Below, in pieces: positions 7,400 to 64,000 of a stretch of 64,000 bases of DNA. Origin of the DNA: Phyllosticta citribraziliensis (taxonomy: Eukaryota); the NCBI RefSeq assembly GCF_038025025.1, contig NW_027117340.1, forward strand, positions 806,001-870,000, in the 5' to 3' direction. Made by a program: the position numbers and the translations under genes. Numbering within the stretch: the stretch's first letter is position 1; each line of letters starts with the position of its first letter. The notes under the pieces are model-generated. The model did no database searches. It saw nothing but the letters and a program-made list of their open reading frames with translations, and was not told the origin of the DNA.

Positions 7400-8230
7400 C
7401 TGCTGCTAACTAGCCTATTATGCCGCGTTGCTATTAGTTCACTGTTACACAGCCTGTTTTAGAGGAAGAAGGTGAAGAGCCTACTTATATACTCTATTAT
7501 TATAATCCTATAGCTTGTTAGGTTCTAGCAGCTAAGTACTTGCTACCTGCTGCTTTATATAATAGTAGTAATAGTGAGATTCGCGTTTATTACTAGTTGG
7601 CTCTAATAAGGCGCCTATTAAGTAGGACTTTAAGTTAATGCTTTACATCCCTTATAAGAATATAGAGAGTGTCGTATAAGTAAGTTTATCTTACTAATAT
7701 AAGGGATTCTTATCTAACTAACTATATAGGTGTACCTTAGTAGTTCTGAAGTATAAGAGCGCACTAAGTACATCTTGGCCTTAGGTAATAGTATACCTTA
7801 CTTATATATTATAGTTTCTACTTAGTAATTTAACTACTTATTAGTTAAAACTTAAGCCAGCTTGTATAATGCTTTTCTTATCTAGTATACTAGAATTAAT
7901 AACCCTATTAGGTATACTAAGTATTATAATAATACTAATACTTATATGTTTATTAGTTGTTGCCACCTACCTGGTTTCTTATAGGGCTGCTGCGCTAACT
8001 ACCTTTAGGGTATAGGTAACTTAGACTGTACTATTAGTAACTTAAAGGGTACTAAGCTGCCTGCTTATTATAAGAGGCGTGAAGATAAAATTTATATAGA
8101 GGAGTTCTAGAACTTATACTACTAAGCTAGGGTAGAGGATTAAACTGATTAGGCTTTAGCTAAGTAGGATATCCTACCTAATAAGCTAGAGGATCTAGAG
8201 GAGACTATCTTATATAATAATAGTTATAAT
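7400..8230 (+). pseudogene. Antisense accessory ORF relic of A2 with DUF3716-like Cys motif (7868-8035)
   Basis: De-RIP reading DAFLIQxTGxxxPxxCxxCx8FxxCRHLPGFLQGRCANCLWGxxxxDCT. ORF boundaries approximate. Confidence 0.6.
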
Positions 8231-32659: not shown

Positions 32660-33460
32660 CTTAACTATTATTATATAAGGTAGCTTCTTCCTACTCCTCC
32701 TATTCCTCTTATATATTATCCTAGTTAGCTAATATATAATCTATCTAATTCTATATTATAGCCTAATTATATAGATTAAGGAATATATCTATATAAATCT
32801 TATTACTATACCTCCTATACTAAGTAGGTAGCTTTATACCCTATAAGTTACTAATAGTATAGTTAAGGTTATCTATACCCTAGATATAGTTAGTATAGTA
32901 GCCCTATAAGAAACTAGGTAGGTAAGGTAGTAATAGCTAATAAATATATAAGTATTAGTATTATTATAATACTTAGTATACTAGATAAGAAAAGTATTAT
33001 ATAAGCTAGTATAAGTTTATATAGATAAGTAGTTAAAGTTCTAAGCTAAAACTATAATATATAAATAAGGTAGGCTATCTCCTAGAGCTAAAATATATCT
33101 AGTATACTCTTATACTTTATAGCTACCTAAGTAAGCCTATACTAGTTAGTTAAGATATCCTTATATTAGTAAGGAATACTTACCTATATAATACTCTCTA
33201 TATTCTCTTAAGGCACCTAAAGTACCTATTTAAAGTTCTACTTAATAGGCTCCTTATTAGAACTAACTAGTAATATAGTAATATAGATCTTACTATTATT
33301 ACTATTATATAAACTAATAGGTACTAAGTACTTAGCTATAGGGACCTAATAAGCTATAGGATTATAGTAATAGTATATATAAATAGGCTCCTTATCTTCT
33401 TTATCTAAAATAGGCTATATAATAGTAAAGTAATAATAATATAGTATAATAATAGGTAAA
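32660..33460 (-). pseudogene. Antisense accessory ORF relic of A' with DUF3716-like Cys motif (~32855-33000)
   Basis: De-RIP PGFLQGRCANCIWGMDNLDCTI. Carries a ~27-bp deletion relative to family A. Confidence 0.55.
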
Positions 33461-34277
33461 GCTAACTAGCTAATAATAGGCTAAGTAGCTAATAATAATA
33501 GACCTTATATAATAGCTAATAATACTATAGGACTAGATACTATAGGATAGTACTAGTAAAGTAATAAGCCTAGCTATATAAGTAAAGCCTAGCCTAACTA
33601 TATAGTTATATAAGTAACCCTAGTATCCTCTATAATTATATTAGTTAGTAAGACTAGATAATAAAGTAGTAAAACCTAGATATATAAAGCTACCTAGATA
33701 TAAGGTAGTCTTATAGGAACTAGATAATAAGTTAGTAATAATCTTTAGGTAGAAGACTCTCTTACTATAATATAGCTCTATTTAATAGTCCTAGTAAATA
33801 CTACTAGTAAGAACAGCTCTCTAAGTAAGTAGTAATTATAATAGATTATAAATAATACTAATATAATAGTATAATAAGTATTATATAATAGTAAGGAATC
33901 CTAATAAGTAACTAGCTAATACTCTACTAGTAAAGGGCTACTCTCTTTACTCTTAGTAGAGTATAGCTCTTTTAAGCCTTTATATAACTATTAGTTTACT
34001 AGATTATGGCTAATTTAGCTAGTATAATAATATACTTTAGTAGGGAGCTCTAGATATAGCTAAGATAGAAAGTAACCTTTTATAGGTTATATAGTAATAG
34101 AAGATAGTAATAGAGAAAGATGGTATAGTAATAAAGCTAGACTAATAATTATACTTTATAAACTATATAGAATACCTAAATTACTAAACTTCTACTACTA
34201 TATATTATAGGTCTATACCTATATAAGTGCCTATAGCTACTAATTCTTATAATTTTAGCTTCTCTTTAGGGGGGGCA

Positions 34278-34668
34278 TATTATAATAGGTATTTATATAC
34301 TTATATAAGTACTAATATTAGTATAGAGAAAACTAGTATTATATAGTTATAAGATACTAGCTACTATAACCTTAGGCTAATACTAGCTATACCTTAGGCT
34401 AATACTAGCTACTATAGCCTTAGGTAGATATAGTATAATAACCTATTAATACCTTACCTTTATAAATAACCTAATAATAACTACTAACCCTTATATAAAG
34501 GTCTAGAGATAGAAAGGTGTAAAGGGAAGGTTAGGAAATAGATAGGAAGTAAGTATCTTTTATCTTTTATTCTTTTAACTTATTATATTTAATTAAGATA
34601 TATATACATTCTCTAGCAGTTTACCTTTAGCCCTAACCTATAAAATAAGAATCCTATAAGTCATGACA
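34278..34668 (+). repeat. 3' LTR of A' (391 bp)
   Basis: Follows the PPT and ends TCATGACA. Diverged relative of the family-A LTR. Confidence 0.9.
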
Positions 34669-34708
34669 AGCCCGAACCTATAAAATAAGAAACTTATAAG
34701 TTATAACA
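34669..34708 (+). repeat. Terminal 40 bp of another A'-type LTR
   Basis: agcccgaacctataaaataagaaacttataagttataaca repeats 34629-34668 with several differences. Confidence 0.75.
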
Positions 34709-35009
34709 CTTATAATCTTACTAACTAGCCTTATCTAAGGCTATAGACTATAAAAATAATAATACCTAGAGCTTCTAGTATATCTAAAGATATAGTATTT
34801 TATCCTAATACTATATAGGGTATAATTAAAATAAGAAAACTTATTAGTAAGAGATTAATAATAAGTCTTATCCTCTTATAAGTAGTAAGAGACCTATTAA
34901 TAGTATTATAGTACCTAGTATGGTACTACTAGTCGGCACCGTTTTTACGGCTCTAGAATGTTATTTTTAGCATCATTATTCCCGTTCCTAATGGTGATTT
35001 TAGCTCTAA

Positions 35010-35336
35010 TATAAGTAGGAGATTAGGCTAGTATAATAATAGGATAATAGATAGCTCTAGAATCTTAGAAAATTATAGTTCTATATAGTCTAGTAGTAAT
35101 AATAATAGCTAATAAAAGTATAGGTAAACTTAGCATCTTTAGTAGTAATAGGAGGTCTTATATTATTAGTATTTTTAGTAGTAGATTAGCTAGTTATATA
35201 CCTCCTTTTATAGCTACTTATAAAGAGGTACTACTTATATAAATAAAGTCTTTTATACCTAGTTAAACTATTATTTATAGTATACTTAGTTATTTATTTA
35301 TTTATACTTATTATTTATACCTAAGTCTTTATTATA
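35010..35336 (+). repeat. Possible 5' LTR of a further element G (internal part 35337-35670, interrupted by F)
   Basis: RIP-compatible TG/CA ends (tataag...ttata), TATA-like tatataaataaa near 35237, followed by ggttgg. No partner LTR in the window. Confidence 0.3.
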
Positions 35337-35670
35337 GGTTGGCTAAAAACCTATAATTATATTAAATACTACTTAGTATTAAGTACTAGGTATACCTATA
35401 CTATAACTACTAGCTATAGCTATAAGCTATATATACTAAAGTTACCTAACTCCCTAAGAGTCTTAGCTACTTAGATAACTTAACCTTAGTACTTATATAT
35501 ATAATACTAATATAATAATAGAAATAAGAATAGAGCCTCCTATACCTATAGTAGGGACTTAATTAAGTAGTTAGTTTTAAAAAATATATTACTATTACTA
35601 AGCTAGTAATCTATTATATAATATAGAATTAAAATAAGGTCTTAATCTCTTATAGTACCTATCTTCCTTC

Positions 35671-35916
35671 TATTATAATACCTAAGGTAAGTTAGGTAAT
35701 AGAATATAAAAGGATCTTATTATATAAATACTATAGATAATTATCTTTTTTTTCTTATAATTAATACTTCTAAGTAGACTTATTACTAATTTAACTTCTA
35801 TCTTATTTATATACCCTTCTTACTTAGCTTTATCTCCTATACTTATATACTTTAGTACTAGGTAAATAGTTACTTAGAACTAGTCTATTAATTAGGTAAT
35901 TTATTAGCTTATAATA
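35671..35916 (+). repeat. 5' LTR of element F (~246 bp)
   Basis: tattataata...cttataata (RIPed TGTCA...TGACA), followed by gaaaaataaagatt, analogous to the family-A LTR/PBS junction. Partner LTR not in the window. Confidence 0.65.
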
Positions 35917-36079
35917 GAAAAATAAAGATTATTAAGTTACTATATCTTTCCTTATATTATTTCTCCTAATATCTAGAAAGGTCTAAAATATCCCCTACTA
36001 AAAATACTAGGTATATATTCTAGAAATATTATCTATATTAGTTAATTAAGTACTATTCTAAGTCTTATAGTATAAGTAC

Positions 36080-37621
36080 TAATAGATACCCCTATAAGTC
36101 TAGAGGACCCCTAGGTATATAGCTAGAGCTACTTTATATAAAGAGAATATAAATAGTCTCTTACTCTAAACCCCTATAAGTAATAAGGTTATATTATATA
36201 AATTAGACTAAGTTAAGAACTAGTTAAATATAGCTAATCTAGGATCTAGTTATAAAGATAGAGTAATAAGATTAATTTCTATAGCTCCCCTAAACCCTTC
36301 TATATAGATAGAAGAAAACCCTAATAATCCTTCTCTAGAACTAGAAGAGAATCTTATCCTTTTATCTTATATCTATTAAGTTAGCTTATTAAACCTAAAG
36401 TTACTTAAGGTAGTAATAGAATAGGGACCTTATAAAGAAGTTATTTCTAAGCTATTTTATAGACTCCTAGGATTTAAGGAGGCTATTAAAAGCTAGTATA
36501 ATAAGACCTATAAGGCTAAAATTATTAAAATACTCTTTAATAAGAAATACTAAATAGTTATTATAGAAGGAGTAATCTCTTACTATAGATAGTTTATAGA
36601 CTACTATAAGAATAAGATTCTAGTAATTCTACTAGTCTATATAATAGATAAGATTACTAAGGAATAAACTACCTAGGAATAGTTATTCTATAAGGAAACT
36701 ATATTCTTCTATAAATTAATTTATATAACTATAAGCTAGCCTATCTAGAAGTACTATATTAAGATCTCTAATCTATCTCTCCTTATAGATAGAAAAGTAC
36801 TAAAGTACTAGGTCTAGCTCTACTAAGTTAAGAATAAAATTTATACTAATTATAATTAATTTATCTTAGATAATCTTATAGATACTAAGGTAGTAATTAT
36901 AGTATATATTATATCTAGGATTAATAGTAAAGTAGTAGATTACCTTCTTTCCTTTCTTAATATTAAAGAAAAGAAAGAATTACTAGTTATAGATACTAAT
37001 TTATATACCTTTCTTAGGGATAAGTTTAATAACCCTTTTAAAAGAAAGGAAGCTAAGAATAGCCTTTAATACCTCTACTTCTATATAAGTAATAATTTCT
37101 AATTATATATTATTAAATTTACTACCTTAGCCCTTAATATAGATCTACCTTAGTTCTAATAGAAGGAAGAGTTTTATACCTCTTTAAATCCTTAATTAAA
37201 GATATATATAATACTCTATAAGGATAATAAGTATATTAAATTCTAGGATTATATTAATAAGGTATCTATTATTATATATAATCTAAAGGACTATTAAGCC
37301 TTATATATATAAGTAAGTAAGTCTAAGGTAAAATAATAATAGGAAGAATTTTTTAAGAAAAAGGTTAATATTAGCTTAAGTACCCCTAAGAAACTTAGAT
37401 ATACTAGGACTACCTTATATACTATTAAGCCTAAGGAATCTAAGAAGTCTATTAATAGTAGTAAAAAGGATACCTACTATAATTATAAAAAGAAAGAATA
37501 TTAGGTATATAACTATATAGTCTCTATTAAGGAAATTAATATATAATTTAAGGAAGAAGAGCTTATACTAGAATTGAAAGAATTCTTTAAAAGTAGTAAC
37601 TTAAAAAACTCCCTTCTCTAA
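36080..37621 (+). pseudogene. gag relic of element F
   Basis: De-RIP CYNCxKxGHWxxxC knuckle at ~37476-37517. Ends near AAAAAAC at 37603-37609. Start approximate. Confidence 0.75.
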
Positions 37622-40600
37622 ATTCTAGGCCTATCTTAGAGATAATAATTAGGTCCCTCTAGTTTAAAGGTACTAATATTAGAATTAATAATTTTATAGG
37701 AGGCTAAGCCTTTACTATATCTATTAAGATTTATAAAAATAGGAAAGCTCTTTATATTAAAGTACTAGTTAATACTAGTACTCTTAGAATTTATTTTATT
37801 TATCTTTAACTTACCTAATACCTTAATATACTTAGTATATATAAATATAAGATTATTAGGGGTATATTTAAAGCCTTAGGATTTAATAGATAAGTAGCTA
37901 CTAAATTAAAGTATATTTATTTCCTTACTATTACTTTTAACTAAAAAATATAAAAAATATAGGCCTTTATTATAATAATTAGCTATAATAATCTTATACT
38001 TAGGAAATATTTCTTTACTTAGAATAACCTCTTACTAGATTATAAAAAATATAAGCTTCTTAGCTAAGATAATAAGGCCCTACCTATATATAAAAAAATA
38101 TTTCCCCTTATCTACTTAGTAGTATACTAATAAGGAAAAATCTTAGAAATATATTAAAAAGATCTAGAAAGAAGAGAAAAAATCTAAAAAGATATAGAGG
38201 AGAAAGTAGTTAATTAATAGACTAACTTCTTACTTATTTCTTTAAACTCTCTTTTTATATAAGATAAAACTACTAAAGTCTAAGTTATTACTCTCTAGGA
38301 AGTTAATATAAGAATTTAAGAACTTACTTTACTCTAAGAAGATAAAGAAACTTTATAACTTCTTAAAGAATACCTTCTACCTTAGTATAAGGAATATTAG
38401 GATATCTTTTCTAAATAATAGTCTAATATCCTACCCTTATACTAGCTAGGTTTTAATTATAAAATTACTATTAATAGAAATAAACCTTTTTCTCTCCCTC
38501 TAAGCCCCTTATATAGAATAATAATAGAATAATTATAAGTTATAAAGAATTATATCCTTAAGAATCTTAAAAAAGGCTTTATAGTTAAAAGTACTATACT
38601 ATATATATTACTAATTCTTATAGTTTAAAAAGGAAGTAGTAAGTAGAGATTCTATATTAACTACTAGTAGCTAAATATATATACTAAGAAAGATTTATAC
38701 CCTCTATCTCTTATCTAAGAAATTCTCTAAAGAATTACTAAGGGTAAAGTATATATTAAGTTAGATATCTAATAGACTTTCTACTAAATTCTTATAAATC
38801 TAGAATTCTAGGATCTAATAATCTTCTTTATATAATATAGATATTTTAAATATACTATACTCCCCTTTAAACTCTATAATAGTCCTACCTTATTTTAGTA
38901 ATTTATTAATAAAGAACTTATACTATACCTAGATAATTTTATTATTATTTTTATAGATAACTTACTTATTATCTCTAAAGACCCTTAAGAATATAAGTAG
39001 TAAGTTAAGAAGGTACTTAAATAATTATAAGAAGCTAATTTATAGGTAGATATTAAGAAATCTAAATTTTTTATTACTTATATAAAGTTTTTAGGATATA
39101 TTATCTCTATTAATAGGATTTCTATAGATCTAGATAAGATATATACTATACATAAATAGAACTTATTAATAACCCTTAAAGGACTTTAAGCCTTCCTTAG
39201 GTTTTATAATTTCTACTAGAACTTTATCCTTAAATATAATAGAATAGCTAGGCCTCTAGAGAAACTCTACTCTAAATAGAAATTCTATATCCTTAATAAC
39301 TTTAAAATCTAGATATTCTAATAACTAAAGAGGATAATAACTAGCTCCTTAGTAATAATATATTATAATTCTAAGGTACTTACCTATATAGAAATAGATA
39401 TAAGTAATAGAGTAGTAGCTAAAGTTCTATTATAATATTAAGAAATTAAAAAATAAAGGCCTATAACTTTCTATTCTAAGTTAATATTAGATATAGAACT
39501 CTAATATAAAATCTATAATAAAGAGTTCCTTATAATTATATATAGATTTAAGGAATAGAGAAGTATACTCCTAGGCCTATATTAGCCTTTTACAGCTATT
39601 ATTAATTACTAGGTACTAAAGTACTTCTCTACTAAATATTTACTTAATACTTAATAAGCCTAATAGTTAGAGAAACTTATAGAATATTATATATAATTTA
39701 TATATAGGCCTAGGAAAGATAATATTATTACTAATACCCTTACTTAAAAATAGGAAGAGTTATAAATCTAGAAGAATAAGAGTATTACTAGGTATATAAT
39801 ATAACTTATAGCTAAAAACTAGATCCTTAACCTAAATATCCTTAATATTACTTTTAATAGCTTATTCCTAATCCTAGAGAGAATACTAGAAGTAAATAGA
39901 ATATCTAGTATATTAGAAGAATAGTATATATAAGCTTATAAACCTAATAAGAAGGACTAAACCCTCTATAATAACTACCTCTTCTATAAGGAGTACCTTA
40001 TAGTCCCTAAATAAGATATCTTATATATAGAGCTAGTAAATAAAATCTACTTATTACTACTCCTTATATATACTAGATAAAATAAGACTTAGAAAGTAGT
40101 TAGAAGGTACTACTACTAGTTAGGTATTATCTCCTATTATATATACTAGAGAAATATAAACTTTTATAATAAGAAGCTAGGATTACTCTAACCTCTCTTT
40201 ATCCTAGACTAAGTCTAGTAATATATTACTATAGACTTTAAGAAGATATCTAAGGATAAATCTAGGTATAATACTATTCTTATATTTATAGATTAACTAA
40301 ATAAGTAAACCTTTAGCCTTCCCTATTATAAATTAATTAATACTAAGGGTATTATATAACTATACTACTAGTTTATTTAGAGAATATATAGTATATCTAA
40401 ATTAGTAGTCTCTAATTAAGGACCTTAGTTTATTTTAGATTTTTAGAATAAGCTATATATAATTATTAGTATTAAATAGAAACTTATCTTAGTCTACTAC
40501 TCCTAGATAAATAATACTACTAAAGTTATAAACTAGGTTATTAATCCATATCTATAACTATATATTAACTATTTCTAGGATAATTAGGTAGAAAGGCTTC

Positions 40601-41490
40601 TAGTATTAGACTTTATATAAATAATACTCCTATATAAATCTATAGGTATATCCCCCTATAAGTTAATCTTTAATTACTATCTTAGCTTTTTATTTAATTA
40701 GGAGAAATATACTATATATCTAAAATCTATAAAGAAGCTATCTTATACTACTATATAGAAATTTACTAAGTATATATAAGAAGCTATATAGTAGGCTAAG
40801 TAATAACTAAGTCTTATCTAAGGATAAATAATATAAGCTATAAACTAATTCTACTAGGAACTAGATTTTAAAGAAGGTAATAAGGTATATATCTTAGTAT
40901 AAGATATAAGTACTAATAGGCTAAGTACTAAGCTTAATACTTAGAACTAAGGTCTCTATTATATTATTAAGAAAAAGGGATACTCCTATAAGCTAGAATT
41001 CCTAGTATATACTAAGATTATAAACCTCTTCTATATAAACTACTTATAGAAGGCTTATTCCCCTCTATTAGGCTAGATTTCTATCCTTAAACCTCTAATA
41101 GTCTACTAGAACTAGGAAGAGTATAAAGTTAACTTTATATATAATAGTAAGGTAGAATAAGGTACCCTAAAATACTAAGTATAGTAGAAAGGATATAACT
41201 AAGATAATACTTAGTATAAGGCCCTAGATATAGTTAGTATCCTTAATTAAATTAAGAAGTACTATATTAAGTTTCCTTAATTAAATTAAGAAGTACTATA
41301 CTAAGTTTCCTAAGGTACTAGGACTACTAAAGTACTTATAAGACTAAAAGGATATAGTAGTATATAAACTAGATTATAAAGGTACTATAAAGAATAATAA
41401 GTCTATTCTCTAAATAGCTAACTAAAATTAAACTCTTTAATACTAATAAAAAAAAAGGAAGCCCTCTAAAACCTATTAAATACTAAGTAA
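37603..41490 (+). pseudogene. pol relic of element F (protease, RT, RNase H, integrase, chromodomain)
   Basis: De-RIP LVDTGA (~37765-37782), FxDD (38950-38961), HxQTDG integrase motif (~40495-40520), EEYEV chromodomain (~41116-41270). Confidence 0.85.
41241..41310 (+). repeat. 34-bp tandem duplication at the end of the F chromodomain
   Basis: ccttaattaaattaagaagtactata(t/c)taagttt occurs twice in tandem. Confidence 0.9.
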
Positions 41491-41499
41491 ATAGACTAT

Positions 41500-42900
41500 T
41501 AAGGCTCCTCCTTCTATAAACCCTCTACCTTAGACTAATAGGTAAGGGCCTTAGCCTAAAGTTAATTACCTAGACTATATAGTAATAGAGGTATATCCTA
41601 ATAGTTAGTAAAGATATTATTATTAAAACTACCTATTAGGGAACTATAAGGAGTAATAGGACTATATATAATCTAGGTATAGATATAGGTATAGGTAGGT
41701 ATTATAAAAATAGGTAATAATAATAATAATAGAGATAAAAAGGATATCTTAAAATTAGAAATCTATAGTAGAGTAATAATAGAAGAATTAAAAATAGGTA
41801 GAGAAGTTAATATATACTAGACTAAGTAGACTAATATTACTACTATTAGATTTATTAAATAAAGATAATATACTAGATAAAGAAGAACTAGTAGAAGAAG
41901 AAGGGCTAAATTTTCTAAATAAGAAAGAAGGACCTAGCTTACTAGAAGGGATATATTTACTAGGTATAGATAAGGATAAAGAAGAGTAGACTATTAAAGA
42001 GACTCTTAGAACTATATAAATAGAGAGTTTAATAGGTATATATAGAATTATTACCTTTTACTCTAAAAGGGTAGTACTACCTAGTAAAGAAGTAGTAGAA
42101 ATAGGACTAATAGATAGGGTACCTAGTATATAGATAAATAAAGATATATTATTAGAAGGACTAATAGGGCTAGCCTTAGTCTCTTTAGATAAAGAAGTAC
42201 TAATATCTAATATAGACTTATTCTTTAAGAATAGACTACTAAGACTAGCTATAAAGTTATCTAAATAATTAGGGACTTTATCTAAGGGATTATACTAGCT
42301 ATTATAAATATAGTTATCTAGATTATATATACTATAAGAGGAAGTACTATTATTCTATTTATAGTTACTATAGCTACTATTAAAGGAACTAGGAATCTAG
42401 TAATAATTAATAAATAGATAATAGATACTATTAGGTAGCTTAATATATATATAGTACTTATAGCTAATACTTTATAGAATATTAGTAAATTAGATAGCTA
42501 TAATAGAGGCCTAAGAATAATAATAGTATAGGTTATTTATAGAAACTAAAAGAATAGTAAGAATACTAGTATAGTTATAAGGTAAGAATAAGAGCTCTTT
42601 ATATATATTATAGACTATATTACTACTAGGAGACTATAATACTATTAGTATAAAAGTTAAAGGCTAAGGAGAAGCTAGATTACTTATCCTACTTAAGATA
42701 ACCTAAATCTTAGCTAAGTATAGGATATATATACTACTCTTATTAAACCTATAAGGCCTAGGTAAAGGTAGACCTAAAGAATCTCTATTAAAACCCTTAG
42801 AACTAGGCTCTTCCTTATCTCTCTCTTTTTATATAGGTAAAGGATAATTATAATAGTAAAGGTAATAAGATAAAGGTAAATAATTAAAAGGACTAATAAT
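41500..42900 (-). pseudogene. Antisense accessory ORF relic of element F with DUF3716-like Cys motif (42331-42498) and Ser-rich tail
   Basis: De-RIP AIQFT...CxxC...PFIDCRRIPGSFNGSCGNCKWNDSASSCS in one frame. ORF boundaries approximate. Confidence 0.62.
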
Positions 42901-43511
42901 TAGATTAGTAGAATTATATCTATATAGATAATAGGAAGGGCTAATATTAGGACTAGAATATTTAGACTAATAGGCCTAAGGATAATAATAAGTAGTAGAA
43001 GAGGTATTATTAAAAAGAGTAATATTATTATATAGTATAATATATATAGATATAGTAATAGAATATATAGAAGTATATATAGAATTAATAGTATTAGGAT
43101 AATAATTAGAAGTAGATATTAATAGATATAAGGGTATAAATTCTAAGAAGTTATTAAAGAATCTATTACTACTAGCTATATAAGTTATTAATACTAAATA
43201 TCCTAATCTTAAGGATAAGGCTTTACTTACCTAGTAAACTACTATCTATATTATTAGACTAACTAGAACTACTAGAATCTATAGGATAATTAATTAGGGT
43301 AAAGCTAATTATAGTAAAGACCTTAGATTATAGATTAGTTAAAATTATATTATAAGCTAAGGGTAAACTTACTAAAGAAGATAAAAGATAGGGTATAATA
43401 AGTATAGTAATAAAGATTAAAGCTAGAGGTAAGAATAAAAAGTCTTTATACTAGACTTATATCTATTAGTATAGCTATAGATATACCTATTAAAATACCT
43501 ACTCTAGTATT

Positions 43512-43934
43512 TGTCATGATAGGCGTACACGCGCCTATATAAGTACCAGGGCCAGCACAGATAAACCTGGCGTCGCGCGGTTATAGGAAGTACAAGCCTC
43601 ACCTCAGGCAGCAGCCTACTATAGCTCAGGCTAAAACCTATAGGCTAGCACTAGCCACTACAGCCTAGTACCAGCTACTACAGCCTTAGGAAGATACCAT
43701 ATAATAGCCTATTAATACCTCACCTTTATAACTCACCTAATAATAACTAAGGACCCTTATATAAAGGATAAGAGGTAGAATAGTATAAAGAAAGGACTAG
43801 GAAATATATAGGTAGTAAGTATCTTTTATATTTTATTCTTTTAACTTATTAGATTTAATTAAGATATATATATATTCTCTAGTAGTTTACCTTTAGCCCT
43901 TACCTATATAATAAGAAATCTATAAGTTATAATA
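43512..43934 (+). repeat. 5' LTR of A3 (423 bp)
   Basis: Reverse-complement match to the other A LTRs. Followed by the PBS gatataaaagat. Confidence 0.94.
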
Positions 43935-43946
43935 GATATAAAAGAT
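43935..43946 (+). promoter_or_regulatory. Self-priming-type PBS of family A
   Basis: atataaaagat (43936-43946) is the exact reverse complement of atcttttatat (43821-43831) inside the LTR. Confidence 0.65.
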
Positions 43947-46377
43947 TATTCTAAGTTTTAGCTCCATCCTATTTCTTTACCTATAAAGGTGTTATAATAT
44001 TTAACCTAAGTAATATTATATATAGCTACAGTCTTATATAAGACCGCTTATTACTTTTCCCTAGTAAACCTAAGTTATCTTTATTAGGCGCATCAGTATT
44101 ATCTAAGGACTAAGGAGCATTAAGCATATATTAACTATAGAAGTCTTTAGTTAAGGCTATAGGGTAGTATATAAATATTTAGGAGGTATCCTATCTATAA
44201 CCTACTTAAGGGACATTCTAAGTAGAAGACTATAAAGATAGTATAGCTAAGAATAAAGCTAATATATCTAGTACTACTAAAGGTATTAGTACTAGTCAAT
44301 TAACTTAACAAGATTTATGTAAAGGCACTAAAGATTCATATAATACTAGATACTTATTAAATAATAATAAGAGAGGACCTACCCCTATTCTCCTATATAA
44401 TTTCTACTTAGTCCTAGCAGTAGAGGTAAAAGAATATACCCAAGACCTAGGGTTAACTTATACAGTTTAAGCTCTAGTTATAGAGGTATTTATAAAGGTA
44501 CTATACTCAGATATTAATTAATTTAAATCTCAGATTACATCCTTAAATAAGTCTTAAGTACAGCAGCAACTAAACTATACATAAAGGTAAAACTAGGCTC
44601 TTAAGTAAATACTCTTAAACTACACTAATAGGCTTAGGGAAGTTCTAAGGGAAGGACATATTAGGCCCTCTTTATTATCTTAGCACCTAAGACCTATTAC
44701 CCTCTCTTAAAATCCTCCTACCTATATAAGGGAAACTACTACTAAAACCTCTACTTTATCTTTAAGTAATAAGAAATACTAAAGTAGTAAGGTTCCTAAT
44801 CCTCCTCTTCTTACTAATAGAGAAGACCCCTTATATAAATACTAGACCCTCCTTATATAAAATAAAATTAAATAAAACTATAATTACTTTACTAAGGATA
44901 CAGTAGAGGAGACTAAATAGAATATTATAGGTTATATTATTTCCTATATTAGTAGAGAAGTCTTATATTACCTAACTCCTTTCCTTACTTCTTATATAAA
45001 GGCTAATAAAGTTACTCTAGATAAGGATATCTTTAAATTCCTAGATAACCTCCTCTAGAGTCTATATAAATATAAGGATATAAAGAAGCAGTTATACTCT
45101 CTTATATACTATATTCCTATAGACCTTTAGAAGTTTTAATTAAACTTTATATAATTAGCCTTAGATATAGATCTTCCCTAAGAATAGTAGAAAGAGGACT
45201 TTTATAATATAATAGATCCTCTCCTTTAAACCTATATAGTTACTATAGAGTAAGATAAGGATATTAACTTTTATAAGTACCTCTAATAAGCCTACCCTAT
45301 TACTTAAAGTCTTAGTAACTACTATTCTAACTATAGAAAACTAATACTCACGTCGCGTAAGGATTAAGTAAAGAAGAGATAATAAGAATAAGTAAAGATA
45401 ACTACCTTAGGTAGTATAAGTACTTTATCTTCTAGTTATACCTAGGCATGATCTATATCTAGGGCTCCCTTATATAATATAACCTATAAAGGTAAAGTAG
45501 AAGTCTATATAGAGATTAGACTATATAATTACTATAGCTAGTTTAGCTATTTATAGAGATAATACCTATAACTAGAGATAAAGGCAATAGAGTTAGTAGA
45601 AGAAGAAAGTACTAAAGATATCTATATAAATAAAGGAGATTAGTCTTTATTAGAAAATAATAAGACCTAGGTAAAGTCTCCTACTATAGGTCTAAACTTA
45701 GAGTAATATATATTAAGGGTTCTTATATAAATCTTAGTTACTTTATTAGAGGTATACCCTTTACTATATAAACCTTAATTGTATCTAATAGCTGCGCCTT
45801 AGAAATTTGTGCCCTAGCTAATACTAGTACTAGTAGTATAAGTTTTATTTACTTTAAGCTACTACTAACTCTCTAGTCTATAGGTGCTGTAAAAAAGAGA
45901 ATAATAGGTAAGGGGCTTAATATTACTAGGTTTAACTAATATATAAATAAGAAAGTTAATTTTTACTTTTATCTTTAACTCTATTTCTAAGATTAAATGG
46001 TTTCTACTTATACTTTTATTTATAATATTGGCTGTAATAATATAATTCTTAGGTGATAGTTTTTTAACTAGTATAATATTCTCCTAGACTATAAATGATA
46101 TAAACTAGTCTAGAGATAGCTACTAGTTAACTAGTCCTTTTAGCATCTTCTATACCTACTAAAAATCTCTATGTAAAGTAAAGAACTGTAGAAAAAATAC
46201 TAAGTAGATATAGACTATAGAGATAAAAAATTTAATAAATACCTCCTTCCCTTAGTATAGGTTATTAAGGGAATGGAATTCTAAACTTAAGATATATTTA
46301 AGCTTTCTATTTATAAAATATAAGTTATACTAATAGAGATCTATACTATTAACCTTATATAAGTTTAAGTAGCTCTT

Positions 46378-46800
46378 TATTATGACTTGCAGATTTCTCG
46401 TTATATAGGTAAGGGCTAAAGGTAAACTACTAGAGAATATATATATGTCTTAATTAAATCTAATAAGTTAAAAGAATAAAATATAAAAGATACTTACTAC
46501 CTATATATTTCCTAGTCCTTCCTTTATACTATTCTACCTCTTGTCCTTTGCATAAGGGTCCTTAGTTATTATTGGGTGAGTTATAAAGGTAAGGTATTAA
46601 TAGGCTGTTACGTGGTATCTGCCTAGGGCTATAGTGGCTAGTGCCAGGCTGTAGTAGCTAGTGCCAGCCTGCAGGTTTTGGCCTAAGCTACAGCGGGCTG
46701 CTACCTGAGGTGAGGCTTGTACTTCTTATAACTATATAATGCTAGGTTTATCTATACTGGCCCTGGTACTTATATAGGCATGTATATGCCTATTATGACA
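46378..46800 (-). repeat. 3' LTR of A4 (423 bp)
   Basis: Ends TATGACA, followed by tgccccccctaa (PPT on minus). Confidence 0.95.
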
Positions 46801-47639
46801 TGCCCCCCCTAAAGAGAAGCTAAAATTGTGGGAATTAGTAGCTATAGGTGCTTATATAGGCATAGACTTATAATATATAATAGTAGTAATTTAGTAATTT
46901 AAGCGTTCTATATAGTTATAAAGTATAATTATTAGTCTAGGTCTACTACTATACCATCTCTTTCTATTACTATTTCTTTTACTGCGCGACCTATAGAAGG
47001 TCACCATCTTACTTAGCTATATCTAAAGCTCCCTATTAAAGTATATTATTACCCCAGTCTAATTTAGCCATAATCTAGTAAACTAACTGTCACGCATAAA
47101 GGTTCTAATAATTTAAATAATTTATACCCTACTAATAGTAAAGCAGACATTCCTAGCTACTATATACTTAATATGTCTACTACTCATTATAGTCTAGTCT
47201 ATTAGGACTTATTACTATTATATAAGAGTTATAGTATTAAGTTATTATCGCGCAGTGTTATTCGTGATCTATTATAGTTACTACTTGCTTAGAGAGCTAT
47301 TTTAGCTAGTAGTATCTATAAGGACTATTATATAGAGTTCTAAGGTAAGTAAACTTTAATTCTATCTCTTTAGACTATTACTAATTATTATCCAGGCTAA
47401 TAAGTAGTATTATATATTTAGGTTTTACCGCTTTATCATCCCATCTTACTAACTAATATAATTATAGAGGAGGATACTCATATAAAGACTTAGTCAGGCT
47501 AGGCTTTACTTATTTAGCTAGGAATAGCTACAGGCTTATTACTTTACCTATAGTATACTATAGTGTCAGGTTCTACTTAATTAGCATTATTAGTTATTGC
47601 GCGAGGTTTGTCATCTGCAGCTGTATAGCCTGCTACTAA

Positions 47640-48460
47640 CCAGTATATTATACTATATTACTGCCAGTTTACTGTCGCGCAGCCTGTTTTAGAGGAAGAA
47701 GGTAAAGAGCCTACTTATATATACTATTATTATAATCCTATAGCTTGTTAGGTTCTAGCAGCTAAGTACTTACTACCTGCTGCTTTATATAATAGTAGTA
47801 ACAGTAAGATTCGCGTTATGGCGTTGCTAGTTAGCTCTAACAAGGTGCCTATTAAGTAGGACTTTAAGTTAATGCTTTATATTCCTTATAAGAATATAGA
47901 GAGTGTCGCGCGAGTAAGTTTATCTTACTAATATAAGGGATTCTTATCTGACTAACTATATAGGTATGCCTTAGTAGTTCTAAAGCGTAAGAGCGCGCTA
48001 AATACATCTTAGCCTTAAGTAACAGCATGCCTTGCTTATATATTATAGTTTCTGCTTAATAATTTAACTACTTATTAGTTAAAACTTAAGCCAGCTCGCG
48101 CGATGCTTTTCTTATCTAGTATACTAGAATTAATAACCCTATTAGCTATACTAAGTATTATAATAATACTAACCCTTACATATTTATTAGTTGTCGCTAC
48201 CTACCTGGTTTCTTATAGGGCCGCTGCGCCAACTGCCTTTAGGGTATAGGCAACTTAGACTACACTATTAGTAACTTAAAGGGTGCTAAGCTGCCTGCTT
48301 ATTATAAGAGGTATAAAGATAAAATTCATATAGAGGAGTTCTAGAACTTATACTATTAAGCTAGGGTAGAGGATTAAACTAATTAGGCTTTAGCTAAGTA
48401 GGACATCCTGCCTAATAAGCTAGAGGATCTAGAGGAGACTATCTTATATAATAATAGTTA
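47640..48460 (+). pseudogene. Antisense accessory ORF relic of A4 with DUF3716-like Cys motif (48102-48270)
   Basis: Unmutated codons ggc cgc tgc gcc aac tgc ctt (GRCANCL, 48219-48239), in frame with gat gct ttt ctt atc (DAFLI, 48102-48116). Confidence 0.65.
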
Positions 48461-48589
48461 TAATAAGAAGAAGGGAAAAGGAAGGAAGTAAAAGAAGGAA
48501 TAGTAAGAAATAAGTAATAAAAAGGAGAGACTAGAGAGTAGGAGTTAAGATTAATAGTATTTATATAAGGGTAGATAGTAAATTAATCA

Positions 48590-51500
48590 GTCTACTTTCT
48601 ATATCTTTATAATATTTACTATAGGTCTAAGTGACTTATTTTATTATTACTTTCTCTTTTAATCTAGGGTTCTTCTTAAAGGAAGGTAGTTTTCTATTTT
48701 TCTAGATTTTTTAGTAGTCCTGCTATAGTAGGGTGTAATAAGTAGAATTCTTTAATTTTCTATAGTGCGCTGCTAAAAGAACTTATATTATACTACTAGT
48801 TATCTTAGTCATATCTAGTCTATTTAACTTAGTATTAAAGCTTCCTATATAAGACTTAACTAGCTTAAATATAGTCTACTTCCTACTTAGGCTCGTCTTA
48901 AATAATCTTAGGTTCAGGTTTAGTATATTCCTAACTAGGAAGCTATTCTATTTCAGCCTTATATAGCCTATTAGTATAGAAAAGGTTGACCATCTTTATA
49001 TATAAGGGAAGATTAAGGATATAGGAGGGTCCTTCTATTCCTATAATCTTAAAAGGTCTAGTATTAGGAAAGTCTAATTTAAGGTTTAGCTAATTAGTAG
49101 ACCATCCTATTTTCTTAATATAGATATAATCTCTAACTATAAAGTCTAGCGCGCGACGGTATTTATTAGCTTATTAGTATATACACTCTTAGGATTTAAG
49201 AATAAGATTCTTTATAAATTTAAAAGCTTCTTATCTTCTCTTTTATAGTATTTATGCTACCGTGCGAGCTATTTTCTCTAGTTACTAGGGGGTTTCGGTT
49301 CTTTATTACTAGTTATAGTATAATTAAGGGGAATATCCTAACTTAATCTTAAAAGGTAAAAGTCTAGTAGCTTTATAGGGAAGTGTTACTTGTGTAAGGT
49401 CTATTAATAGTAGAAGATCAGACTAATTATTCTAAAAGTAATTAATAAAAGGTCTTAATCTTTATATAAGATGCTAATTAACAATCTCTATAATACTATT
49501 AGTCTAAGAGTAGTAGGATGAGTTAAAATGCTGCTCTATACTAGTTAGCTTATATAGTTTATTTATAAACGCTGAGATGAACTGAGGGCCTTAGTTAGAT
49601 AGGATAGACTTAGGGTTTCTATAAATATAGTAGATATATTTATAAAAGAGCCTAGAGACTCCTTTAGTATTAATCTTCTTTATATAAGGCAAGCTAAAGG
49701 TTCTTTAACTTAACTAGTCTATAATAACTAGAATTGTATTATAGCCTTTTTAGTCTTTAGGCATCTCTTTAAAATCTATAGCTAGGTATTACTAGGGTCA
49801 AGTAGGAATCTCTAGGGGTTATAGAAGGCCTAGGTCTTTATTATAAAACTCTTTTATTTAGCAGCAAATATGGCATCCTTACCTATAAATATCAATCGTG
49901 TGATTTATAGCTGGCTAATAGTAATGTCGCTTAAGGAGTTTTCGCATCTTTATAATACTAGAATAGGCGGTTATATAGGTAGTATATAAAGTATTAAGTA
50001 TTCTTGCATGGAGGTTATTGTGATCTAGTATAAAGAGGGTGCTATATTATAGTAAAAGACTATCTTTTAGTTCCTAACTATTTCTTTATTTAAGGTCTTT
50101 TAAGAGGGCTTTCTATCTCTAGAGTTCTAATTTAGAATCTTCCTAGTTCGCGTAGAGGAGTTTATCTAAAAATAATACTAGAGGAGGAAGTTCTTATTCT
50201 AAAATAGAAAGAGGGATAATAGTCTCTAGTAGGATAAGGCATATCTCTTATACGGCCCTTGCTTTTTCTTTTTAAGTCTTTAGGTCTTCTTATTTTTAAG
50301 TAAGGTAATTAGTAATGATATTTTCCTTTCCTAGTTAATAGGAGAATCGTACGTAGAATTCTATAAAAAACTTAGACTATCTAGCTTGTTATTAATTAAG
50401 TTGTCGTTTAGTAGAGTAGTACTTTAATACCTAATAGTCTGTAATTATAAGAAAAGGTTTTTTAAGGCTAATAAGTATTAGTCTCTATTCTTCTAGTCTA
50501 TTCTTAATAGCCAGCAGTTCTTTATCTAAAATTCTATAATAAAGTTCTGCATCTACTATTGCCTTAGAGTAGAAGGCTACTAGTTTCTAATTATATAAAG
50601 GTTATTAGAGCTGCATTAAAACGCCTGTAGTAACTCTATTACTTATATTAGTCTCTATATAAGTGTTAAGAGTAGGGTCATAGTTAGCTAGGAGTGCGTC
50701 ACTATATATTAGCTTCTTAAGTTACTAAATTGCCTCTTCTTCTAGGGGTCCTAGTTATTACTATTTTGCCTTAGAGTATAGTTTCTCTAATAGTCGGCTA
50801 ATTCATCTATAGTTAGGGAGAAATCGTCGGTAGAAATTATAGAAACCTAGGAAGGATTAAAGAGCTTTAAGGGTTTTTAGTATTAGCTAGTTTTATATAG
50901 GTTCTACCTTATCTGGGTCTATTTAAATGCCTTCTATAGAAATGATATATCTAAGAAACTTTATATGAGTAACTAAAAACTCGCTCTTCTTTAAATCTAC
51001 CTGTAGTCCTGCTTTTTATAGTCTTGCTAGTACTTTTTTTACTTGTTCCTCGTGCTCTGTAGGGTTTTTAGAGATAATAAGCATGTTATCTATAAAAGCT
51101 ATAATAAAGTTATCTAAATACTTAAAGAGAACCTGGTTAATAAAACATTAAAAGGCTGCTAGTCTGTTACTTAATCTAAAAGGTAAGACACGGTATTTAA
51201 ATAACCTGTATCTTATATAGAAAGTGGTTTTGTCTTTAGAATCCTTAGTAAGATGGATGTAGTAGAAAGCTTATTAAATATTAAGCTTGGTGTAAATCTT
51301 GCCCTTTCTAATACGCTAAAGTAACTCTATAATAAGAGGGAGGGGGTGCGAATCCTTAGTAGTTTATTTATTAAGCTGTTAGTAGTCTATATAAAATCTC
51401 CATCCCCTACTAGGCTTTTTTACTACTAGAATAGGAGAAGCGTAGGTAGTAAAGCTTTTAGTAATAAAGCCTTTCTAAATATTCTTAATGATATACTCTT

Positions 51501-54100
51501 TTATAGCCTTAAGCTGTTCTAGAGATATTCTATAGAGAGGGCTAGGTGGAAGCTCTAGTAGACTATTATATATAAGAGATATTTTATAATCAACTCCTGT
51601 GTGATATGGTAGTAGCTTGTTAGACTCTATTTTAGAAAACACATCTTAAAATTCCTTATAAGTAGCTAGTAGCTTAGAAGCTAATAATTCCTTAGTTTCT
51701 TTATCTTTAAGAGCTGCTTAAACTTGTATAAGGTTAATAGTATAGATCTCTATTAGCGCAACTTGTATTTTATAGATAGAAAGCTTAAAAGCATTTTAAG
51801 TTTAAAATTCAATTCCCTTAATAACCTATACTAAGGGAAGAAGGTGTTTATTAAAGTTTTTATCTCTATAGTCTATATCTACTTAATGTTCTTTCTGCAG
51901 TTTATTACTTTACATAGAGACTTTTAGTAGGCGTAAAAGATACTAAAAGGATTAGTTAACTAGTAGCTATCTCTAGACTAGTTTACATCGTTTATAGTCT
52001 AGAAGAACATTATGCTGGTTAAAAAACTATTACCTAAGAATCATGTTATTACAGCTAATATTATAAATAAAAGCATAAGTAGAAACCATTTAATCTTAGA
52101 AATAGAGTTAAAGATAAAAGTAAAAATTAACTTTCTTATTTATGCGTCGGTTAAACCTAGTAATATTAAGCCCTTTACCTATTATTCTCTTTTTTATAGC
52201 ACCTATAGACTGGAGAGTCAGTAGTAGCTTAGGGTAAATAAAACTTATACTACTAGTGCTAGTATTAGCTAGGGCATGAATTTCTAAGGCACGGCTATTA
52301 GATATAATTAAGGTTTATATAGTAAAGGGTACACCTCTAATAAAGTAACTAAGATTTATATAAGAACCTTTAATGTATATTGCTCTAAGTTTAGACCTAA
52401 GGCAGGAGACTTTACCTAGGCCTTATTATTTTCTAATAAAGACTGATCTCCTTTATTTATATAGACATCTTTAGCACTTTCTTCTTTAACTAACTCTATT
52501 GCCTTTATCTCTAGTTGTAGGCATTGTCTCTATAAATAGCTAAACTGGCTGTAGTAATTACACGGTCTAATCTCTATATAGACTTCTACTTTGCCTTTAT
52601 AGGTTGTATTATATAAGGGAGCCCTAGATATAGATCGCGCCTAAGTATAACTAGAAGATAAAGTACTTATACTGCCTAAGGCAGTTATCTTTACTTGTTC
52701 TTATTATCTCTTCTTTACTTAATCCTTATACGACGTGAGTGTTAGTTTTCCGCGATTAGAATAGTAGTTACTAAGACTTTAAGTAATAGGGTAGGCTTAT
52801 TAGAGGTACTTATAAAAGTTAATATCCTTATCTTACTCTATAGTGACCATATAGGTTTAAAGGAGAGGATCTATTATATTATAAAAGTCCTCTTTCTACT
52901 ATTCCTAGGAAAGATCTGTATCTAAGGCTAATTATATAAAGTTTAATTAAAACTTCTAAAGGTCTATAGGAATATAGTATATAAGAGAGCGTAACTACTT
53001 CTTTATATCCTTATATTTATATAGACTCTAGAGGAGGTTATCTAGGAATTTAAAGATGTCCTTATCTAGAGTGACTTTATTAGCCTTTATATAAGAAGTA
53101 AGAAAAGGAGTTAGGTGATATGAGACTTCTCTACTAATATAGGAAATAATATAACCTATAATGTTCTATTTAGTCTCCTCTGCTGTATCCTTAGTAAAGT
53201 GATCATGGTTTTATTTGATTTTATTTTATATAAGGAGGGTCTAGTATTTATATAAGGGGTCTTTTCTATTAGTGAGAAGAGGAGGATTAGGAACCTTACT
53301 ACTTTAGTATTTCTTACTACTTAAAGATAAAGTAGAGGTTTTAGTAGTAGTTTCCCTTATATAGGTTAGAGGAGGTCTGAGAGTCCTTATTACTCTACTA
53401 GTAGAAGGATCTTAAGAGAGGGTAATAGGTCTTAGGTACTAAGCTAATAAAGAGGGCCTAATATATCCTTCCCTTAAGGCTTCCCTTAGTCTATTAGCAT
53501 AGTTTAAGAGTATTTACTTAAGAGCCTAGTTCTGCCTTTGCGCGCGGTTTAGTTGCTACTGCACTTAAGACTTGTTTAAGGATGCAATCTTAGATTTAAA
53601 TTAATTAATATCTAAGCGTGGTACCTTTATAAACGCCTCTATGACTAGAGCTTAAACAGTATAAGTTGACCCTAGGTCTTAGGTATATTCTTTTACCTCT
53701 ACTACTAGGACTAAGTAGAAATTATATAGGAGAATAGGGATAGGTCCTCTCTTATTATTATTTAATAAGTATCTAGTATTACGCGAATCTTTAGTCTCTT
53801 TACGCGAATCTTGTCAAGTTGATTAACTAGTACTAACACCTTTAGTAGTACTAGATATATCAGCTTTATTCTTAGCCATACTGTCTTTATAGTCTTCTAC
53901 TTAGAATGTTCTTTAAGTAGGTTATAGATAGGACACCTCCTAAATATTTATACACTGCCCTATAGCCTTAATTAAAGACTTCTATAGTTAATACGTGCTT
54001 AATGCTCCTTAGTCCTTAGATAACACTGATGCGCCTAATAAAGATAACTTAGGTTTACTAGGGAAAAGTAATAAGCGGTCTTATATAAGACTATAGCTAT
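48590..54100 (-). pseudogene. RIP-inactivated gag-pol of A4
   Basis: Same motif order as A2. CCHC at ~52520-52567, DTG at ~52258-52268, FxDD at ~51085-51097. Confidence 0.9.
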
Positions 54101-60800: not shown

Positions 60801-63800
60801 CCTTTTAACATTTTATTAACCAGGTTCTCTTTAAGTATTTAGATGATTTTATTATAGCTTTTATAGACAACATACTTATTATCTCTAAAAACCCTATAGA
60901 GTATGAGGAATAAGTAAAAAAAGTACTAGTAAGACTATAAAAAGTAGGACTATAGGTAGATTTAAAGAAGAGTAAGTTTTTAGTTACTTATATAAAGTTT
61001 CTTAGATATATTGTTTCTATAGAAGGCATTTAAATAGACCTAGATAAGGTAGAACCTATATAAAACTAGCTAATATTAAAAACCCTTAAAGCTCTTTAAT
61101 CCTTCCTAGGTTTCTATAATTTCTACTAATAATTTCTCCCTAACTATAGATAAATTAGCTAACTATTAGAGAAACTATACTCTAAGGTAAAATAGTAATA
61201 ACTAGGACCCCTAGAAGAAGAGGTAATTTAGTAACTTAAGAAGCTAATATATAGTAATACACTCCTAGCTAACTATAACCCTACTCTTAATACTCACATA
61301 GAGACTAATATAAGTAATAGAGTTACTATAGGCATTTTAATGCAGCTCTAATAACCTTTATATAATTAGAAACTAGTAGCCTTCTACTCTAAGGTAATAG
61401 CAGATATAGAACTTTATTATAGAATTTTAGATAAAGAACTGCTAGCTATTAAGAATAGACTAGAAGAATAGAGACTAATACTTATTAGCCTTAAAAAACC
61501 TTTTCTCATAATTATAGACTATTAGGTATTAGAGTACTACTCTACTAAATAATAACTTAATTAATAACAAGCTAGATAGTCTAAGTTTTTTATAGAATTC
61601 TATATATAATTCTCCTATTAACTAGGAAAGGAAAATATTATTACTAATTACCTTACTTAAAAATAAGAAGACCTAAAGACTTAAAAAGAAAAAGTAAGGG
61701 CTATATAAGAGATGTACCTTATCTTACTAGAGACTATTATTCCTCTTTCTATTTTAGAATAAGAACTTCCTCCTTTAGTATTATTTTTAGATAAACTCCT
61801 CTATATAAACTAGGAAGATTCTAAATTAGAACTCTAGAGATAGAAAGCCCTCTTAAAAGACCTTAAATAAAGAAATAGTTAGGAACTAAAAGATGGTCTT
61901 TTACTATAATATAGTACCCTCTTTATACTAGATTGCAATAACCTCCGTACGAGAATACTTAATACTTTATATACTACCTATATAACTACCTATCTTAGTA
62001 TTATAAAGATATAAAAACTCCTTAAGTAATATTACTACTAGCTAGCTATAAATTACACGATTAATATTTATAGGTAAGGATGCTATATTTACTACTAAAT
62101 AAAAGAGTTTTATAATAAAGACCTAGGCCTTCTATAACCCCTAGAGATTCCTACTTGACCCTAGTAATACTTAGCTATAGATTTTAAAGAGATACCTAAA
62201 GACTAAAAGGGCTATAATATAATCCTAGTTATTATAGACTAGTTAAGTTAAAGAACCTTTAGTTTACCTTATATAAAAAAGATTAATACTAAAGGAGTCT
62301 CTAGGCTCTTTTATAAATATATCTACTATATTTATAGAAACCCTAAGTCTATCCTATCTAACTAAGGCCCTTAGTTTATCTCAGCGTTTATAAATAAACT
62401 ATATAAGCTAACTAGTATAGAGTAGCATTTTAACTTATCCTACTACTCTTAAACTAATAGTATTATAGAGATTATTAATCAGCATCTTATATAAAGATTA
62501 AGACCTTTTATTAATTACTTTTAAAATGATTAGTCTAATCTTCTACTATTAATAGACCTTATACAAGTAATACTTCCCTATAAAGCTACTAGACTTTTAC
62601 CTTTTAAGATTAAGTTAGGATATTCCCCTTAAATGTACTATAACTAGTAATAAAGAACTAAGACCCCCTAGTAACTAGAGAAGATAGCTCGTATAGTAGT
62701 ATAAATACTATAAAAGAGAAGATAAGAAGCTTTTAAATTTATAAAGAATCTTATTCTTAAATCCTAAGAGCATATATACTAATAAGCTAATAAATACCAT
62801 CGCGCGCTAGACTTTATAGTTAGAGATTATATCTATATTAAGAAAATAGGATGGTCTACTAATTAGCTAAACCTTAAATTAGACTTTCCTAATACTAGAC
62901 CTTTTAAGATTATAGGAATAGAAGGATCCTCCTATATCCTTAATCTTCTCTTATATATAAAGATAGTTAACCTTTTCTATACTAATAGGCTATATAAGGC
63001 TGAAATGGAACAGCTTCCTAGTTAGGAATATACTAAACCTAAACCTAAGATTATTTAAGATAAGCCTAAGTGGGAAGTAGACTATATTTAAGCTAGTTAA
63101 GTCTTATATAGGAAGCTTTAATACTAAGTTAAATAGACTAGATATAACTAAGATGACTAGTAGTATAATATAAGTTCTTTTAGTAGCGCGCCGTAGAAAA
63201 TTAAAGAATTCTACTTATTATACCCTGTTATAGTAGGACTACTAAAAAATCTAGAAAAATAGAAGGCTGCCTTCCTCTAAGAAGAACTATAGATTAAAAT
63301 AGAAAGTAATAATAAAATAAGTTACTTAGGCCTATAGTAAATATTATAAAGATATAGAAAGTAGACTAATTAGTTTACTATCTACCCTTATATAAATACT
63401 ATTAATCTTAACTTCTACTCTCTAGTCTCTCCTTTTTACTACTTATTTCCTACTATCCTCTTCTTTAATTTCTACCCTTTACTTCTTTCCTTTTCCCTTC
63501 TTCTTATTATAATAGTTATTATATAAGACTATCTCCTCTAGATCCTCTAGCTTATTAGGTAGGATATCCTACTTAGCTAAAGCCTAATTAGTTTAATCCT
63601 CTAACCTAGCTTAGTAGTATAAGTTCTAGAACTCCTCTATATAAATTTTATCTTTATGCCTCTTATAATAAGCAGGCGGCTTAGTACCCTTTAAGTCACT
63701 TATAGTGTAGTTAAGGTTACCTATACCTTAAAGGTAGTTAGTATAGCAGCCCTATAAGAAACCAGGCAGGTAGTAATAACTAATAAACGCGCGAGTGTTA

Positions 63801-64000
63801 GTATTATTATAATACTTAGTATAGCTAATAGGGTTATTAATTCTAGTATACTAGATAAGAAAAGCATCGCGTAAGCTAGCTTAAGTTTTAACTAATAAGT
63901 AGTTAAATTACTAAGTAGAAACTATAATATATAAGTAAGGTATGCTATTACCTAAGGCCAAGATATACTTAGTACGCTCTTATACTTTAGAACTACTAAG
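57382..64000 (+). mobile_element. Family A copy A5 (5' LTR, gag-pol, start of the antisense ORF region; truncated by the window end)
   Basis: LTR at 57382-57804. De-RIP DTG at 59690-59698 and FxDD at 60860-60871. Chromodomain at ~63065-63230. Cys motif on minus at ~63702-63868. Left flank AATAG is the predicted TSD. Confidence 0.93.

Follow-up and report, generated by a model that had tools for sequence, protein, structure and literature searches.

A probable RIP-mutated antisense gene behind the pol of Ty3/Gypsy elements in Phyllosticta citribraziliensis

Repeats of the window and the family F element

The window analysed here is a 64,000-nt stretch of Phyllosticta citribraziliensis (assembly GCF_038025025.1, contig NW_027117340.1, positions 806,001 to 870,000 of the forward strand), and all positions given below are those of the window. 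It is AT-rich fungal repeat DNA with a GC content of 22-33%. Fungal repeats are mutated from C to T and from G to A by RIP, and the RIP indices TpA/ApT and (CpA+TpG)/(ApC+GpT) were 1.78 and 0.18 for the whole window and 1.66 and 0.02 for family F. Repeats were delimited by self-comparison of the window, and pol of F was located by tblastn to the pol of family A and by Pfam:

6182-14415: family A copy 1, pol on the minus strand
30572-34668: A', a relative of family A that is 79% identical to A
34225..34668, plus strand: 3' LTR of A', adjoining F on the left
34669..43511, plus strand (the pol strand): family F piece
37600..41284, plus strand: F pol (RT, RNase H, integrase, C-terminus)
43512..43934, plus strand: 5' LTR of family A copy 4, adjoining F on the right
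43512-46377 and 54611-57381: family A copy 4, interrupted
46382-54610: family A copy 2, pol on the minus strand
57382 to the window end: family A copy 3, pol on the plus strand

Elements of family A measure ~8.2 kb, their LTRs being ~440 nt long, and the flanking LTR pair is seen directly in copy 1 (6182-6625 and 13973-14416). When the A copies were compared with each other, 275 of 4,013 columns held transitions and 18 held other differences. Between 43512 and 64000 the elements are nested, with copy 2 inserted in copy 4 and copy 3 (57382 onward) breaking the pol of copy 4. RIP appeared to be strand-asymmetric relative to element orientation among the A copies, TG being well above CA where pol is on the minus strand (223 vs. 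48 and 234 vs. 120) and CA above TG in the copy with plus-strand pol (92 vs. 42). At the junction of A' and F there is a small duplication of an LTR end (34640-34710), in which the end of the A' LTR is followed by 11 nt and then by the last ~29 nt of the LTR again. The stretch at 14.4-30.5 kb includes a Gypsy pol fragment (26327-27331, minus strand) that is 37% identical to F pol by tblastn and belongs to neither A nor F.

The raw read of F pol was matched by the Pfam families RVT_1 (4.8e-14), RT_RNaseH_2 (8.5e-13), and RT_RNaseH (1.5e-9), and the order in F is that of Ty3/Gypsy elements, with RT and RNase H followed by integrase. A profile built from the pol of A and F matched Gypsy pol proteins carrying rve and Integrase_H2C2 with E-values down to 4e-201, and intact ones among the Gypsy pol proteins included one from Xylaria arbuscula. 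On A copy 2, Integrase_H2C2 was found at an E-value of 6.8e-4, under the Pfam cut-off. The C-termini of F and A copy 1 pol could be aligned over the SH3 and Chromo regions of the intact relatives P0014 and P0019 (E 1e-8 to 2e-11), and Pfam Chromo gave no match on the raw reads of F or A copy 1.

No LTR pair of its own was found for F within 34669-43511, even after RIP collapse (transitions ignored). F is bounded on both sides by family-A LTRs, which indicates that nested insertions have cut it, so its own LTRs may fall outside the window. Since a family-A 5' LTR adjoins F on the right, the true 3' end of F is out of view.

The antisense frame and its cysteine-type domain

Behind pol, the minus strand of F holds a stop-poor frame with a Cys-type domain, and counterparts of this domain were located in three copies of family A:

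41788..43230, minus strand: stop-poor antisense frame of F, 481 codons with 14 stops
42331..42498, minus strand: RIP-mutated Cys-type domain of F, 56 codons with 4 stops, 11 TAY, and 0 Cys
42313..42433, minus strand: core island common to F and A (48164-48284 in A copy 2), from the RIP-collapsed ungapped scan
7904..8038, plus strand: domain of A copy 1, antisense to its pol
48138..48272, plus strand: domain of A copy 2, antisense to its pol, the least RIPed
63698..63832, minus strand: domain of A copy 3, antisense to its pol

The frame of F (43230-41788) runs opposite to pol and follows its end (~41284), as would an antisense ORF placed after pol and before the 3' LTR. The position between pol and LTR is directly visible for family A only, the F 3' LTR being outside the window; in A, whose domain is likewise on the opposite strand, the distances are 1,383 nt inward from the LTR edge and ~440 nt to the end of pol. 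A frameshifted version of the domain is present in A' near 32900.

Fourteen stops is the minimum among 5,010 windows of 481 codons taken from the six frames (mean 55.6, sd 14), and the next non-overlapping window of this length has 25. Over the same stretch the other minus frames hold 39 and 101 stops, and 34 are predicted from base composition. The density of 14/481 (2.9%) is about the yield expected from former Gln plus Trp codons. In the 2,212 nt of F behind pol there are 0 TG and 0 CA dinucleotides vs. 515 TA, and therefore Cys, Trp, His, and Gln codons cannot survive on either strand; with TG gone from F, former Cys and His codons would now read as Tyr and former Gln and Trp codons as stops.

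The minus-strand codons quoted in an earlier reading of this DNA (hereafter the sequence-only reading) are present, in a frame beginning at 42498, and the stops within 42498-42331 are two TAA and two TAG. That reading had also proposed a long Ser-rich tail reaching ~41500. The tail was recovered, Ser making up 23.8% over 42330-41788 vs. 8.5% in the six frames of the window, but the frame ends near 41788. It also extends upstream to about 43230, with about 244 codons ahead of the domain and the Ser-rich tail behind it, which places the domain in the middle of a frame of ~480 codons in total. In family A the frame of the domain is not conspicuously stop-poor, and a three-copy RIP-corrected consensus still has many stops, so that the limits of the A ORF are unreadable.

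Because RIP alters only C to T and G to A, F and A were compared after collapsing those pairs. The 81-nt block of F at 42414-42334 agreed with the A copies (7949+, 48183+, and 63787-) at 64, 64, and 65 positions, and these three placements ranked first to third among 127,840 window positions on both strands, self excluded (mean 40.5, sd 4.8, next best 60). No nucleotide similarity to A had been seen here by the sequence-only reading, which was wrong, as 42-49 of the 81 positions agree even in the raw sequence.

In an ungapped scan of the two post-pol regions, the core island was the top segment, with 96 of 121 nt alike (79%) and a score of 46. Codon-block shuffles (n=60) scored 30.2 +/- 2.4 with a maximum of 37, and none of the 60 reached 46. 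One further segment, at the end of pol, exceeded the shuffle mean (score 34). The core island was the only significant match between the A and F post-pol regions in this RIP-collapsed ungapped scan, the remainder being unalignable, and in gapped local alignment in a two-letter alphabet the shuffles scored as high as the real pair. A homologous Cys-type domain, downstream of pol and on the opposite strand, is thus common to F and A on the evidence of the homology scan and the shuffles. Orientation and location agree, as does Cys spacing over 27 codons, in line with the sequence-only reading.

Outside the domain, RIP-collapsed pol sequences of F and A were 78% alike overall (RT core 82%, IN core 81%). 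The domain is therefore as conserved between A and F as pol is, and its divergence (0.79 vs. 0.78 for pol) fits descent from an A-F common ancestor, not separate captures.

A pattern of this kind could in principle be read with hindsight into any Tyr-rich, AT-rich RIPed DNA, given that every TAY is readable as a former Cys and that Tyr makes up 9.6% of the window's six-frame codons. Such a chance origin is highly improbable here, as the unbiased scan places the A copies first, the segment score lies above all the shuffles, and the frame is the most stop-poor of those counted.

The reading of TAY as former Cys, which the sequence-only reading had applied throughout, can be checked on the A copies. 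At four Cys positions of the A core (after F-I-S, within G-x-C-x-N-C, and after D), TGY is kept in at least one of the three copies and TAY is found in the others; F has TAY at the four homologous codons (42405-03, 42372-70, 42363-61, and 42336-34). A neighbouring codon reads CGC, TGC, and TAC across the three A copies. As an internal control, the integrase zinc finger of A copy 2 has C-H-I-C where that of A copy 4 has Y-Y-I-Y. Given the loss of TG and the TGY surviving in A, reading TAY as former Cys appears legitimate, and the TGY codons of A bear it out at the four core positions. The first (upstream) CxxC is putative, with TAT in all three A copies, in A', and in F.

In public reads, a 291-nt contig from run X1 represented a second, diverged copy of F (22 differences and 6 gaps, one difference being undisplayed). 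This copy has TAY at all 11 positions and is as RIPed as the copy in the window. It differs in having AGT for AAT, which gives F-I-S as in A, and GGT for AGT, which gives P-G as in A. Runs X1 and X3 contained exact pieces of the window sequence, run X2 gave matches of 31-36 nt only, and no read of run X5 matched.

A tentative DUF3716 assignment and related elements

The Cys pattern and spacing would agree with the motif of DUF3716. When the 45-residue read of A copy 2, in which C-A-N-C is preserved, was searched unchanged, PF12511 (DUF3716) was the sole family listed, with an E-value of 0.071 and 13.5 bits, under the curated gathering cut-off of 22 bits. The match spans profile positions 24-48 of 59, and the N-terminal part of the profile is unmatched. 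For a family named beforehand, this E-value corresponds to ~3e-6 per test; eight such reads of the A and F domains were tried, and one of the eight raw reads was matched.

Controls were drawn from 45-codon reads with at least three Cys (50 of 59 qualifying windows, nine overlapping ones being left out), and PF12511 matched none of the 50. They gave four unrelated matches (E 0.14-0.2) and one true match, that of Integrase_H2C2 on the integrase zinc domain (6.8e-4). Specificity, in the sense of PF12511 alone standing above the background of similar peptides, was found for family A only.

None of the three raw reads of F matched a Pfam family, and PF12511 was absent from the long raw reads of F and of three A copies, in which stops were written as X. 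A word-based protein search with the three A copies returned 154 candidates, none at E<=10, and a search of the Atlas with a 32-aa stop-free A peptide gave no usable match. Raw reads have been stripped of most Cys by RIP, so failure to reach the cut-off says little about the original protein. The DUF3716 label given by the sequence-only reading is carried in part, by a sub-threshold match for A but without a Pfam match for F, whose assignment rests on homology to A. On this sequence evidence the link to DUF3716 is plausible and sub-threshold.

The core island might instead act in cis at the level of DNA or RNA, for instance as an antisense promoter or a signal for replication, its Cys-like pattern being incidental. 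This would suit the transversion differences between A and F, which are spread evenly over codon positions (7, 9, and 7 of 23) without a third-position excess, as well as the lack of a Pfam match for F and of a clearly open frame in family A. The 14/39/101 stops of the three minus frames, however, show a three-base periodicity that points to coding, Cys codons have been kept at a fixed spacing in the A copies, and A copy 2 is matched by PF12511 vs. none of the control peptides. We regard a cis-acting element as unlikely and prefer the reading of a former protein-coding gene.

In a search for intact antisense genes, 72 metagenome loci and one locus from a viral collection that encode relatives of the A and F pol were examined. 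Among 27 LTR-delimited relatives, 22 have at most 207 nt from pol to the 3' LTR; these compact elements (~5.9 kb) come mostly from one sample and are hence not independent. In the remaining five, a comparable ORF was absent. A DUF3716-like regular expression (C..C.NC.aromatic..C) had no match in the 73 loci, and a looser six-Cys expression matched one, L066. Within the wider lineage the gene is not a general feature, given that 22 of 27 relatives have no room for it.

The compact relatives (L013, L021, L023, L056, and other Ga0307507 loci) have a GC content of 35-40%, and their longest plus-strand ORFs reach no more than 89-161 codons; these copies, too, have decayed, possibly through RIP.

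In a FastTree phylogeny of pol, A and F grouped together with an SH-like support of 100, which shared RIP composition may inflate, and their neighbours were P0005, P0007, P0008, and L026. A and F could have gained the domain separately, by capture of a host DUF3716 gene or from a DUF3716-carrying DNA transposon, with the common position being a coincidence or a preferred insertion spot. DUF3716 genes do lie within a Zymoseptoria IS3EU transposon, according to the available text of PMC8232023, and the 22 relatives lacking a post-pol gene imply that the gene was gained at some point. Against this, strand, position, and Cys spacing over 27 codons are identical in A and F, the RIP-independent divergence equals that of pol, and the two pol sequences group together with full support, subject to the same inflation by RIP composition. 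Two separate gains are accordingly improbable, and a single gain before the A-F split accounts for strand, position, Cys spacing, divergence, and pol grouping.

On the preferred reading of a single gain, the ancestor common to A and F already carried the domain. The sequence-only reading had called the gene an old, selected feature of the lineage; it is old in that it predates the A-F split, but the 22 of 27 relatives without space for it speak against a feature of the lineage as a whole.

The locus recovered with the looser expression carries an intact 108-codon antisense Cys-rich ORF (L066:5032-5355, minus strand) ~750 nt behind a metagenome Gypsy pol. It resembles the A/F domain in its antisense position behind a related Gypsy pol and in a broadly similar six-Cys layout; the pol tree places other sequences closer to A and F than the L066 pol. 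This ORF had 54 relatives among 1.84 billion representatives, one of them named (from Stipitochalara longipes), and the consensus of its family is C.RC...H.C...KC.YC..Q...C. Membership in the same family was rejected, as its HMM misses the A/F domains even with Tyr read as Cys, and an assignment to DUF3716 was rejected as well, PF12511 being found in 0 of 25 and 0 of 51 members. All 22 matches in a profile search with the ORF family were without Pfam labels. In the Atlas, a cluster with 28% PF12511 members stood at rank 3 for this ORF (score 0.78), which is a lead only. The ORF represents a separate Pfam-orphan family; it could be an antisense accessory gene of another type, perhaps related to brtn (see below).

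A probable destroyed accessory gene and its known counterparts

We consider it probable that this part of F is what RIP has left of an additional Ty3/Gypsy gene, located between pol and the 3' LTR and facing pol tail to tail from the strand opposite to gag-pol. Prior to RIP the frame was open over roughly 480 codons and encoded a cysteine-rich domain of ~45 residues near the middle, followed by a Ser-rich tail. The domain would be a DUF3716-type (PF12511) module binding zinc via its cysteines. An antisense transcript that began near the 3' LTR may have encoded the protein, which may have served the element in trans as an accessory factor that binds nucleic acids. RIP has reached saturation here: Cys and His codons have all become Tyr, and Gln and Trp codons have all become stops. 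The gene in the window is a dead relic.

Should intact copies bear out the DUF3716 assignment, this sizeable fungal family of unknown function would gain a genomic context, as an accessory gene of LTR retrotransposons besides the reported IS3EU DNA transposon. Its function would then become testable, as binding to the DNA of its own element, as an effect on transposition or silencing, and through domesticated host copies. For annotation, the result is a warning that some fungal DUF3716 gene models may be transposon genes. The comparison of A and F also shows that heavily RIPed repeats remain comparable once transitions are ignored.

A broader and rather doubtful proposal is that DUF3716 is in essence a zinc-dependent module for DNA binding carried by transposons, antisense behind pol in a Ty3/Gypsy lineage and also in IS3EU, and that many 'hypothetical' fungal DUF3716 genes are transposon accessory genes or domesticated copies. 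If true, this could possibly take in the telomere-repeat-binding NCU05718/PSC58 type. The available portion of PMC10776026 gives a DUF3716 protein as an ortholog of a Neurospora telomere-sequence-binding protein, and PF12511 is listed as a strain-specific gene in Colletotrichum in the corresponding portion of PMC5225507. In a literature search (supplements aside), no paper tying DUF3716 or PF12511 to LTR retrotransposons was found.

Three known systems can be set beside the elements described here. In Zymoseptoria tritici, REP9-1 and REP9-2 are DUF3716 genes inside a class II transposon, IS3EU (PMC8232023, from the same available text). As described there, they resemble the gene of A and F in being DUF3716-type passengers or accessories of a fungal transposable element; the carrier, however, is a DNA transposon in Zymoseptoria and an LTR retrotransposon here.

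The plant Gypsy elements Grande, RIRE2, Retand, and PvRetro13 have antisense ORFs between pol and the 3' LTR, which are of unknown function and conserved within families, as summarized in the available text of PMC7264820. The order of pol, antisense ORF, and LTR is shared with the elements of the window, but the hosts are plants and, as far as that text extends, the proteins are not known to be related.

The closest architectural counterpart is found in the Boty-like Gypsy elements of Botrytis, where brtn, a gene that runs antisense after pol and before the 3' LTR, was published in 2011 (Virology; as reported in the accessible passages of PMC7264820 and PMC8365987, with brtn also cited in those of PMC4227169 and PMC5987419). 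To judge from these passages, Boty, like A and F, is a Gypsy element of a fungus in which an additional antisense gene is placed between pol and the 3' LTR. The pol of Boty has a chromodomain, and those of A and F may have one. Unlike brtn, the gene of A and F is a RIP relic, and the two are likened by architecture. The architecture of an antisense gene behind pol is already known from brtn in Boty.
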